A program made the position numbers. 64,000 nt of DNA from Escherichia coli O127:H6 str. E2348/69 (GTDB lineage Bacteria; Pseudomonadota; Gammaproteobacteria; Enterobacterales; Enterobacteriaceae), in assembly GCF_000026545.1 (NCBI RefSeq), contig NC_011601.1. The stretch is one strand, 5' to 3'. Shown here one piece after another: positions 41,001 through 44,000 of the stretch; position 1 is the first letter of the stretch; the number at the start of each line of letters is the position of its first letter.

Positions 41001-44000
41001 TGACCTGTTCTTCGTTGCGGCTACCTGACTTTTGCAGTACCACGCCGGGGACGACACTTAATGCCTGAGCGACATTCTGTTTATCCAGGGCCTTCATGGT
41101 GGGTTGATCGAGAACGGTGGTCGTCGTTGATGATACCGGACTGGACCATACGGTCAGCGTGTCGCTCTCCTGAGCTGCTACGGCCTGCTGGGTAAAGGCA
41201 AGTGATAATGCTGTGCAGAGATAACGTTTTTTGAGTCTCATAGAATAAATTCCGTTTAACAAAGAATTAAATAGAGGCTGCGGGTTGCAGACTGACTTTA
41301 ATGTCAGCAGGTGCCGCGTAGTAAGGCGCGGAGGTAATAAAAAGGCGAATGCCGCAGTCGAGGTAATTTTTGAGTGTTGTCAGATTAATTCCGCCGGTCA
41401 GAGCCAGCGTGCAGTGGGGAGCCAGCGACGGTGCTATTTGCGCAATTTCAGTTGCCTGTTGCGGACTAAATTTGTCGAGCTGAAGTACGTCTGGTTGCGC
41501 GCGTAACGCGGCGATTGCCTCTTTCGGCGCGTCGGCTTCAACAACTATTTTCTTCTCGGGTGCGTGGCGACGTAACTGATTGATTGCGCCTGACCAGTCC
41601 TGATTGTCATGAAGAAAATGGCGGTGGTTGGCAAACAATAATATGGTTTCCGCACATCCGGCACGATGAATCAGTCCTCCGGCAGCCAGAATTGCCTGCG
41701 AGGCCAGTAAGCGGGTACCCGGAATTGCTTTTCGGGTGCAGGCGATATTGCCATCAGGGTAACGTTCACGAAGTAACGCCAGCATTTGAGCGAGATAATC
41801 AGAAACACCGCAACTCCACTCCAGCACATTCTGGACTGCCTTCCATCCCTGATGAAGTGCTGCGGCATTACCTTGCGCACGGATTAGCCGCTGACCCGCG
41901 TTCGCTTGTGAACCGTCGCTGACCGCGTCATCAATAGTTAATCCCAGCGTAGTTAACATCTTACACGCGACAGAAATGCCGCTGACGCAGCCGCCCTGAC
42001 GGAGAAAAAACTCTATATAGCCATGCTGGTGTCCAATATTTAATGCTCGCGTGGTCAGGTCACCGCCCTGGATATCTTCCAGCAGTAACGCATCGATTTG
42101 TGCCTGAGAAAGGAAAATCATCGCAGTGTCTCCTGCGGTACGCTATCCCACCAGATGAGCGCCCAGTCGCGGCTGGCAGTGGCGAGGGCACGAGCATCTT
42201 GTTGTTGATACCAGCGATATAACCGCTCACGCTCATCGTCGTTAAGCGCGCCCAGACTCCAGCTGACGTTCTGCTCAAAACGTTCCCAGGTGCTGTTATC
42301 CTGTTGGCAATTTTGTCCGCGGATAAAATCAACGTGAGCATAAATTCCCATCTGATACAGGACGTTGAGCGCAAAGATATAGTTGGGTAATTCGATCACT
42401 TCCCGACCAGCCGCCCGCTGAATGGCTGGAGAGACGAACGAGGTGCTGACCAGATGAGTCGTATAGACGCGAAGCCGTGCCTGATTATTCAGTTTGCTCA
42501 TAGCCTGGCGCATATCAGCCACCAGAGTGGAGCGGGAAGCCACGGCAATATCGCAGCGTGGCAGGTCACTCCAGTCCTCTTCCCAGGCGCGCTGGATCCA
42601 GTGGACATTGTCTGCCTTTAGCGCGGCGGCGCGACGGGCGGCAACGTTCAGCATCCCCTGACTGTAATCAACGCCATAAATCGTCGTGAGTTTGTCAGCC
42701 AGCGCCAGCGATACGGTACCCGGTCCGCAGCCCATATCGAATAAGGTTTGCGCGCCTTGCAGGTCAATTTTTGAGGTCAGTTGTTGCAGGTAGCTGTCCG
42801 TAGGCGAGGCGCAATTTTCCGCCATTTTTTCCGCCCGTTGATCCCAGTGATCCGGCGTTTTTTCTGTGCGATGGGCCAGCCTGAGTTGCTGAAGGTAAAG
42901 GTCTGCAAAATCAATATCGTCAATGAGCATGATTTTTCCTTAGTGCTTAATTGCAGAGAGGTGATGGTGAATCTGGTCGGCAGAAACCCGGTACAGGGCA
43001 GCCAGTTTTTTCGTTGTTAACTGTTCGGTCGGTAAGCCTTGTGTTACTCGTCCATCTGGCTCTACCTGGATAATGCTGTCGGCAATGGCGTTTGCATGGA
43101 GCGGATGATGAGTCGACATTAACATTGTCATGCCGTTATTTTTGAGCTGCGCCAGCGTGTCCAGAAGTTGGATCTGATGACCGAAATCGAGGCTGGAGGC
43201 AGGCTCATCCAGTAATAACAAGCGCGGTTGCTGGACGAGTGCACGGGCGATTAAAGCCAGCTGACGTTCACCGCCGCTAAGCGTATTCCAGCGTCGTGTC
43301 GCCAGATGCAAAATGCCCAGCTTTTCCAGTTGCTCCGTTGCTTTCAGGCGTTCTTGCTTACCGGGAACGGAAAAAGCGCCTATGGTGGGGGCCAGGCCCA
43401 TCAACACCATATCCAGCACACTAAAAGCAAAAATGCCGTCGTGCGCCTGCGGCACCCAGGCAATAGCCTGCGCGCGCTGGCGATGGCTGAGTGTCTGCAC
43501 AGGGAGGCTATCCAGTAAGATCTCGCCTTTTAATAACGGTATAACGCCAAGAATGGAGCGCATGAGTGTGGTTTTGCCGCAACCATTGGCTCCTAACAGA
43601 CAACAAATTGTTCCTTGCGACAGGGTGAAGGACACGTCGCGTAGCACCGGATGGCGGGAGTAACCCAGAGACGCATGACGGACGGCAAGCAAAGTCACTG
43701 GCGACCTCCGCGTAACAACAATAACAGGAAAAACGGTGCGCCAACAAAAGCGGTCAGAATGCCAAGTGGGATTTCTGTTGTTCCAATGCTGCGTGCCAGC
43801 GTATCGGTAAGCAGGAGCAGAATCGCGCCAGTACACATTGCTATGGGCAACAGCTGCTGATGGTTATGACCGGTCAACAAGCGGGCAATGTGCGGAACGA
43901 CCAGGCCGACCCAACCAATTATGCCCGCTATTGCTACCGTGCTGGCGGTGATGAGTGTGGCGCAGACAATCAATCCAAAGCGCAGACGTGTCACGTTCAG

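Follow-up and report, generated by a model that had tools for sequence, protein, structure and literature searches.

A predicted ModE-regulated operon joining a MolBC-like importer to a TonB-dependent receptor, ModD, and a methyltransferase in Escherichia coli

Uptake of molybdate through a type II ATP-binding cassette (ABC) importer has been described in Haemophilus influenzae, where MolBC-A imports molybdate, its binding protein MolA binds both molybdate and tungstate, and molybdate represses molB (PMC4031551). These genes belong to a cluster comprising modA (HI1469), molCBA (HI1470-1472), modD (HI1473), salX, and cysU (PMC3928620). The subject of this work is a six-gene operon of Escherichia coli O127:H6 str. 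E2348/69 which combines an importer of this kind with ModD, a methyltransferase, and a TonB-dependent outer-membrane receptor. It lies in a stretch of 64,000 nucleotides of contig NC_011601.1 (assembly GCF_000026545.1), referred to here as the window. Judging from sequence comparisons, the operon is probably a molybdate-responsive system repressed by ModE for the acquisition of molybdenum or tungsten (Mo/W), and not of iron.

In the literature this cluster already bears the name prrA-modD-yc73-fepC and is described, on homology grounds, as "possibly mediating iron uptake". It corresponds to ECs1693-1699 (OI#55) of O157 Sakai and to genomic region 9 of strain BEN2908, a block of about 6.4 kb, and is also placed in O157 and in extraintestinal and avian pathogenic (ExPEC/APEC) strains. 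The published cluster holds the same receptor, ModD, methyltransferase, and ATPase genes, followed by the genes for the permease and the binding protein; the initial annotation of the window had presented the locus without this earlier description. The function assigned to it there, however, seems mistaken or, at the least, unproven. In the literature searched, prrA and modD are named together in two papers, neither of which connects the cluster with molybdenum, and an earlier listing of its ModE site in surveys or regulon databases is possible. For the ModD family, the literature checked describes no function.

The ModE-type operator and the importer

The operon as a whole, and not ModD alone, is tied to molybdenum by a predicted ModE operator and a MolBC-like importer; the initial annotation had taken the transporter as a generic one. 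The predicted ModE box, at 45720-45747, reads TTCGCTATATG-TGTAAG-TATATAGCGGC on the coding strand. Its core is a perfect inverted repeat, CGCTATAT-N8-ATATAGCG, located at 45722-45745, which shows no mismatches to the ModE core CGNTATAT-N8-ATATANCG and is the sole such match in the window. When sites are scored against the E. coli ModE consensus ATCGNTATATA-N6-TATATANCGAT (as quoted in PMC545781), in which 20 positions are fixed, the box reaches 16/20, the same score as the proven modA operator of strain K-12, and the next-best site in the window reaches 13/20, with none other above 13. The spacing is similar as well, with 22 nt between the box and the start codon of the binding-protein gene and 18 nt between the modA site and modA.

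Upstream of the box there is a perfect TTGACA hexamer. With TTGACA as a possible -35 element, the box, which begins about 15-17 nt further downstream, would overlie the -10 and transcription-start region; a consensus promoter scan called no -10 element near the hexamer. Both the binding of ModE to this site and the repression of the operon by ModE are predictions from sequence. A simple terminator scan flagged the palindrome at 45721-45746 as a "terminator-like" hairpin of 11 pairs, three of them G-C. AT-rich operators can be mis-scored in this way, and the palindrome is more plausibly a protein-binding operator than a terminator.

The motif is respected by the variation found among E. coli alleles. 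Other alleles of the promoter score 17/20; the three base changes that they carry within the box lie on the N position or in the spacer, or bring the site nearer to the consensus. Orthologous operons from other genera, examined among a set of comparison loci (L numbers), carry boxes that differ in sequence from that of E. coli. In Pectobacterium (L011) a box scoring 18/20 precedes the binding-protein gene and another of 18/20 precedes the receptor gene; the corresponding values in Proteus (L009) are 15/20 and 19/20, and in Edwardsiella (L010) a box of 15/20 stands before the methyltransferase-ModD pair. All hits of 15 or more in the comparison loci scanned lie in a regulatory gap of this kind or upstream of modA.

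The importer points in the same direction. Among solved structures, the best relative of the permease is HI1471 (MolB, 2nq2; E=7.5e-65), with 222 bits against 173 for FhuB, 165 for HmuU, and 144 for BtuC, and the best single-domain relative of the ATPase is HI1470 (MolC, 2nq2_C; 126.5 bits). No NCBIfam equivalog matches the ATPase at or above its cut-off. A three-sequence profile of the binding protein retrieves, among solved structures, 4pag (3e-42), 4ovk (1e-16), and MolA (HI_1472; 1e-13), with MolA outranking the binders of heme, siderophores, and B12. In Pectobacterium, a gene for a di-Mop molbindin (TIGR00638, 136 bits) is located directly upstream of the operon.

The binding protein starts with a twin-arginine translocation (Tat) signal, MSLTRRRFTQ (45610-45697, minus strand), whose RRxF motif is kept in Proteus (MAIRRRQFL; L009, 5376-5525) and in Pectobacterium (MGMNRRAFL; L011, 5341-5490). 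To our knowledge, a Tat signal on the binding protein of an ABC importer is unusual in Proteobacteria. Export by this route implies that the protein folds, and possibly loads a ligand or cofactor, in the cytoplasm.

Much in the operon recalls iron uptake. A TonB receptor accompanied by a Peripla_BP_2 protein, a FecCD-family permease, and an ATPase is typical of systems for siderophores, heme, and B12, and iron appears both in the published label and in the RefSeq product name of the binding protein, "iron ABC transporter substrate-binding protein". A Fur-controlled iron system, in which ModD and the methyltransferase would have an accessory role or process the ligand, is nevertheless decidedly unlikely. 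The best match to a Fur box in the promoter scores 12/19, which is the background level (118 sites of the window score 12), and no match within three mismatches is present anywhere in the window; the promoter carries instead a ModE-type operator that is conserved across genera. Moreover, MolBC, and not Fhu, Fep, Fec, or Hmu, is nearest to the permease and the ATPase, and the NCBIfam equivalogs for iron all stay below their cut-offs. The iron label was given on homology only, and the architecture is shared with non-iron systems.

The six genes form an operon on the minus strand, between ymgE/ycgR and treA, in which neighbors overlap or are at most 25 nt apart (Table 1). The RefSeq annotation of E2348/69 contains the same six genes. 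The order and overlap of the genes, their homologies, the conserved residues, and the presence and conservation of an operator-like motif can all be read directly from the sequence. Of 5426 complete E. coli genomes, 2139 (about 39%) carry the full island and 2144 the promoter.

Table 1. Genes and promoter features of the operon, in positions of the window
Feature	Coordinates	Strand	Basis
Periplasmic binding protein, Peripla_BP_2 (cluster A), Tat signal	45697..44675	-	Pfam PF01497
FecCD-family permease, type II ABC importer, MolB-like	44675..43695	-	Similarity to solved structures
ABC ATPase, MolC-like, "fepC" in the literature	43698..42940	-	Similarity to solved structures
Class I S-adenosylmethionine (SAM) methyltransferase, 270 aa, "yc73" in the literature	42930..42118	-	Pfam
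ModD, 284 aa, no signal peptide	42121..41267	-	NCBIfam TIGR01334
TonB-dependent outer-membrane receptor, "prrA" in the literature	41241..39271	-	NCBIfam receptor subfamilies
Predicted ModE operator	45720..45747	-	Consensus match
TTGACA hexamer, possible -35	45763..45768	-	Direct reading of the sequence

Besides the operon, the window contains, beside umuDC, a pseudogene of hlyE (hemolysin E) with its N-terminus missing (24750-25073; RefSeq, coordinates converted). In the ymg/ycg region, which is low in GC (0.37-0.44), RefSeq places a truncated pseudogene of a cyclic-di-GMP phosphodiesterase and two frameshifted fragments of autotransporter beta-barrels (14357-15256, 16894-17514, and 18832-19174).

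ModD and the methyltransferase

The two cytoplasmic enzymes are encoded between the ATPase and the receptor genes, as the initial annotation had proposed and as open reading frames, Pfam and NCBIfam matches, and RefSeq agree. That annotation also had the two genes overlapping by ATGA, which a direct reading of both frames and of their junction bears out: the TGA stop of the methyltransferase gene and the ATG start of modD share 4 nt at 42121-42118 (junction ...ctgcgATGAttttcc). Its view of the two as a coupled pair inside a transporter operon is supported by the packing of all six genes. The same 4-nt overlap recurs in Proteus, Edwardsiella, and Pectobacterium (in locus numbering, the methyltransferase gene ends at 9004 and modD starts at 9001), and it is therefore a conserved feature and more than chance. 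In at least 12 pairs of ModD and methyltransferase homologues from other genera, the two members have an identical value for the length of the longest contig, which suggests that they are on the same contigs.

ModD matches TIGR01334 with 502.6 bits (cut-off 178.85) over profile positions 1-277 of 277, and has the two domains, PF02749 and PF01729, of the quinolinate phosphoribosyltransferase (QPRTase) fold. No solved structure of the ModD family was found, the best match being the Mycobacterium tuberculosis enzyme QAPRTase (E=2e-20). When 85 ModD-family proteins were mapped onto this enzyme (1QPR, whose numbering is used below) and onto E. coli NadC, nine of the 11 mapped active-site residues of QPRTases turned out to be kept: T138, R139, K140, H161, R162, H175, E201, D222 (as D or E), and G249 are present in at least 79 of the 85. 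The position of R105 holds K in 66 proteins and R in 17, G270 is replaced by Ser, and D173 is variable. Of the NadC-type set (R105, T138, R139, K140, H161, R162, K172, E201, and D222), eight of nine are kept or conservatively replaced, and the ninth, K172, is replaced by Phe in 81 of the 85, where true QPRTases invariably carry lysine. The ModD of the E. coli operon itself has F163 at the K172 position and W93-K94 at that of R105.

Because nearly all the active-site residues of QPRTases are retained, ModD is not a degenerate relic. The residues retained would presumably provide a cationic pocket for the carboxylates of quinolinate and acidic residues for ribose, roles that we take over from the M. 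tuberculosis enzyme.

The genomic contexts of ModD were explored through 12 contig look-ups and the literature. A search of 1.84 billion representative proteins returned 121 relatives at E<=1e-30. A degenerate DNA pattern for TRK..P-G...HR-F..H retrieved four loci, two of them modD genes in Campylobacter metagenome-assembled genomes and two chance matches. Every ModD gene context that could be read is one of molybdenum or nitrogenase, and never of the synthesis of nicotinamide adenine dinucleotide (NAD). The cases include the order ModD-ModA-ModB in Campylobacter, a ModA-like gene beside ModD in another locus, a ModD-ModE-ModABC locus adjoining nifZ and nifW, the arrangement nifU-nifS-x-ModD near nifHDK, and a ModD gene adjoining one for a Nitro_FeMo-Co protein. 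A distant metagenomic locus (L006) encodes TOBE, ModABC, ModA2B2, ModD, a TonB receptor, ModE, and TOBE, with ModE-like boxes upstream of modA and of the receptor gene. Fusions occur as well, namely ModC-ModD, ModD-TOBE, and a ModD with a C-terminal extension that is NifQ-like as judged by eye. A Methanococcus homologue of 28% identity, which may be an archaeal NadC and not a ModD, is encoded near genes for MoaE, ThiF, and FdhD. In the literature, ModD is reported from Geobacter and from the nif cluster of Zymomonas, the latter also holding two TonB receptors.

These contexts bear on the possibility that ModD is simply a second true QPRTase for NAD synthesis, whose position in the operon would be incidental. 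Most catalytic residues are indeed conserved, and the match to NadC (TIGR00078) is significant (E=3e-39). This match, however, stays below the NadC cut-off (134.8 against 198.4 bits), while that of ModD is exceeded by far; the Phe in place of K172, the fact that E. coli has its own nadC, and the molybdenum and nitrogenase contexts all leave this reading improbable in the extreme.

The methyltransferase matches the Pfam families Methyltransf_25, _31, _12, and _11 and has the motif DMGCGPG, in which D65, G67, C68, G69, and G71 are invariant in 29 homologues. Its AlphaFold model has a pLDDT (predicted local distance difference test) of 92, and a Foldseek comparison with the PDB retrieves generic class I small-molecule methyltransferases acting on many substrates, with a TM (template modeling) score of about 0.5. 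Neither NCBIfam nor Foldseek assigns it to a subfamily of defined substrate; the best NCBIfam match is CpaM, a corrinoid-protein-associated family, with 43 bits where the cut-off is 180. In a PADLOC scan, the enzyme had only a generic match to a methyltransferase domain and no link to a defense system. The enzyme is an orphan of the class I small-molecule type.

Orthologues of the methyltransferase in Proteus, Pectobacterium, and Edwardsiella have 51-57% identity, and its homologues track the enterobacterial clade of ModD. In Edwardsiella tarda (L010, 8105-9849) only the methyltransferase-ModD pair is retained, with no adjacent transporter or receptor, so that the pair can evidently be maintained without the rest of the operon.

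The match to CpaM is also one of the features that could speak for the uptake of a corrinoid or another tetrapyrrole-type cofactor. The top NCBIfam match of the permease is likewise an archaeal-type BtuC (237 bits), and ATPases for corrinoids and heme rank high for the ATPase. Such uptake is very improbable all the same. These scores are far below their cut-offs (461 for the BtuC model), all Btu models score below theirs, and MolB is ahead of BtuC by about 80 bits among solved structures. Furthermore, an Rfam scan of 38500-48500 revealed no riboswitch, cobalamin or other, even at E<=1, its sole match being a chance one to a small RNA (E=0.63). The iron, corrinoid, and true-QPRTase readings thus each fail in a feature that was tested.

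The receptor, encoded 25 nt downstream of modD, matches NCBIfam subfamilies of TonB-dependent receptors, with no equivalog at its cut-off and no close relative among solved structures. Its orthologues in Pectobacterium (64% identity) and Proteus (54%) each have the ModE-like box of their own mentioned above. The proposal of the initial annotation hung in part on TonB receptors occurring with ModD elsewhere, and such neighbors are found in Proteus, in Pectobacterium, and, with an unrelated receptor, in the distant metagenomic locus. It had also asked whether the residues binding quinolinate and phosphoribosyl pyrophosphate (PRPP) are conserved in ModD, as they mostly are, and had reckoned with a ModD stripped of all catalytic residues and foreign to TonB receptors, or with a known resistance or housekeeping methyltransferase. 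With the residues kept, TonB receptors recurring beside ModD, and a methyltransferase matching no such known enzyme, its proposal stands on these counts.

A proposed route for molybdenum or tungsten

If the operon is a ModE-repressed Mo/W system, its action could be pictured as follows. Upon molybdenum scarcity, ModE would dissociate from its promoter-overlapping operator and so allow transcription of the operon. The TonB receptor PrrA would then move some form of molybdenum or tungsten through the outer membrane, and the Tat-exported cluster A binding protein would pass it to the MolB/MolC-like type II importer. ModD, with its cationic pocket for a carboxylate or oxyanion, may act in the cytoplasm on the imported molybdenum species or just after import, with the translationally coupled methyltransferase working at the same stage. 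The species transported and all the enzymatic chemistry are what we infer from the genes. Plain modABC and nif genes also have ModD as a neighbor, and for this reason the enzyme probably acts on molybdate itself or on an endogenous partner molecule and not on a foreign ligand. The initial annotation had suggested that what is imported becomes phosphoribosylated or methylated, or that the operon handles a pyridine-carboxylate-type ligand; no result obtained here supports this.

Several observations weigh against the assignment to molybdenum. What identifies the ModE box is its match to a consensus, in DNA that is rich in AT, and four outer positions of the E2348/69 allele are mismatched. The kinship between the binding protein and MolA is distant (the E value of 1e-13 was obtained with a profile and concerns the C-terminal half), and 4pag and 4ovk, which appear without a named ligand in the search results, are closer to it. 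MolA itself binds molybdate weakly, with a dissociation constant of about 100 uM (quoted in PMC3928620), so that even MolABC may have a true substrate other than molybdate. Being small, molybdate is thought to pass the outer membrane through porins (PMC8264917), which makes a TonB receptor for it unexpected. The receptor beside the distant metagenomic ModD has no BLASTP similarity to PrrA; the pairing of ModD with a TonB receptor has therefore arisen more than once and does not descend from one ancient gene pair. A solitary methyltransferase of 64% identity in Shewanella avicenniae (L013, 9001-9816) lies by an insertion sequence (IS) transposase gene with no ModD nearby, so that the methyltransferase need not depend on ModD. 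Finally, the sole label that the literature gives to the operon is that of possible iron uptake, and the molybdenum assignment is drawn from sequence.

In the Shewanella locus, a gene with a Nitro_FeMo-Co domain is located 2.5 kb from the solitary methyltransferase gene.

Alternatively, the metal might enter as an organic Mo/W complex, either a metallophore-bound form or a molybdenum compound derived from the host or the microbiota, with ModD and the methyltransferase processing the carrier in order to free or recycle the metal. This would set the idea of the initial annotation in a molybdenum context. Large ligands are the usual cargo of TonB receptors and type II importers, which fits such a complex, as does the very low affinity of MolA for free molybdate; the operon embeds two translationally coupled enzymes, ModD keeps a pocket suited to an aromatic dicarboxylate and PRPP, and the structures nearest to the methyltransferase are of enzymes for small molecules and natural products. 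However, ModD also accompanies plain modABC and nif clusters that have neither a TonB receptor nor a type II importer, which speaks against a substrate that has to enter as a foreign ligand, and the locus contains no genes for metallophore biosynthesis. Taken together, this makes the reading rather unlikely. A broader proposal, that many lineages of E. coli and other Enterobacterales possess a TonB-energized outer-membrane route for an organic Mo/W complex, with ModD and the methyltransferase capturing or releasing the metal, is put forward here as a tentative one, and we would doubt it more readily than accept it. The step performed by the two enzymes might in that case be a PRPP-dependent modification of the carrier or the activation of the oxyanion.

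Should this broader proposal hold, molybdenum would replace iron in the assignment of a cluster linked to pathogenic E. coli strains, and a biochemical function would be found for ModD. If the operon is controlled by ModE and supplies Mo/W, its listing in genome papers as a putative iron system would be wrong for a cluster that about 39% of complete E. coli genomes carry, including that of the enteropathogenic (EPEC) strain E2348/69. Anaerobic respiration that depends on molybdoenzymes, with nitrate, formate, and S- and N-oxides, matters for Enterobacteriaceae in the inflamed gut. A TonB-dependent route for molybdenum would also, if real, challenge the view that molybdate diffuses through porins (PMC8264917). 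For the study of ModD, E. coli offers tractable genetics, a clear regulatory prediction, and defined partner genes.

Comparison with known systems

The operon resembles the MolABC system of H. influenzae, termed a "secondary molybdenum transporter", in having a type II importer of the FecCD family, a Peripla_BP_2 binding protein, and an adjacent modD gene. The mol operon of that organism is repressed by molybdate through a regulator described as unknown (PMC4031551), whereas a ModE box is predicted here. Contrary to the E. coli operon, the published HI1469-HI1475 cluster lists no TonB receptor and no methyltransferase (PMC3928620), and the E. coli binding protein is distant from MolA and carries a Tat signal.

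With E. coli modABC, the operon shares the operator consensus, the 16/20 score, and a similar position of the operator just upstream of the first start codon. ModABC is, on the other hand, a type I importer with ModA (SBP_bac_11) as its binding protein, and includes neither an outer-membrane component nor enzymes. ModD and NadC (M. tuberculosis 1QPR and the E. coli protein) have the same fold and differ by K172F, a variable D173, R105 being mostly K, and G270S; the genomic context of ModD is molybdenum or nitrogenase and not NAD synthesis.

Like Fec, Fhu, Hmu, and Btu, the operon combines a receptor, a cluster A binding protein, and a type II ABC importer; unlike them, it lacks a Fur box or a B12 riboswitch, embeds two cytoplasmic enzymes, and has a ModE-type operator. 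The fit system of E. coli (fitABCDE-fitR) is similar in being an accessory cluster of pathogenic strains with a TonB receptor and an ABC importer. An identity with fit was rejected, as fit has two permeases, a divergent fitA/fitB promoter in a 347-bp gap, and the RpiR-like regulator FitR, none of which is present here.

In Methanosarcina acetivorans, ModE motifs precede two operons for "Fe ABC transporters", ma1234-1224 and ma1200-1197 (PMC12327845), and these may be another case of molybdenum-regulated transporters that are labeled as iron.

The published view of the prrA cluster is one of possible iron uptake, and the ModE-type operator, the affinity to MolBC, and the lack of a Fur box point instead to Mo/W. 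The operon is best described as a variation on the known types of molybdate uptake, represented by the ModE regulon and by MolABC, to which a TonB receptor, ModD, and a methyltransferase have been added.

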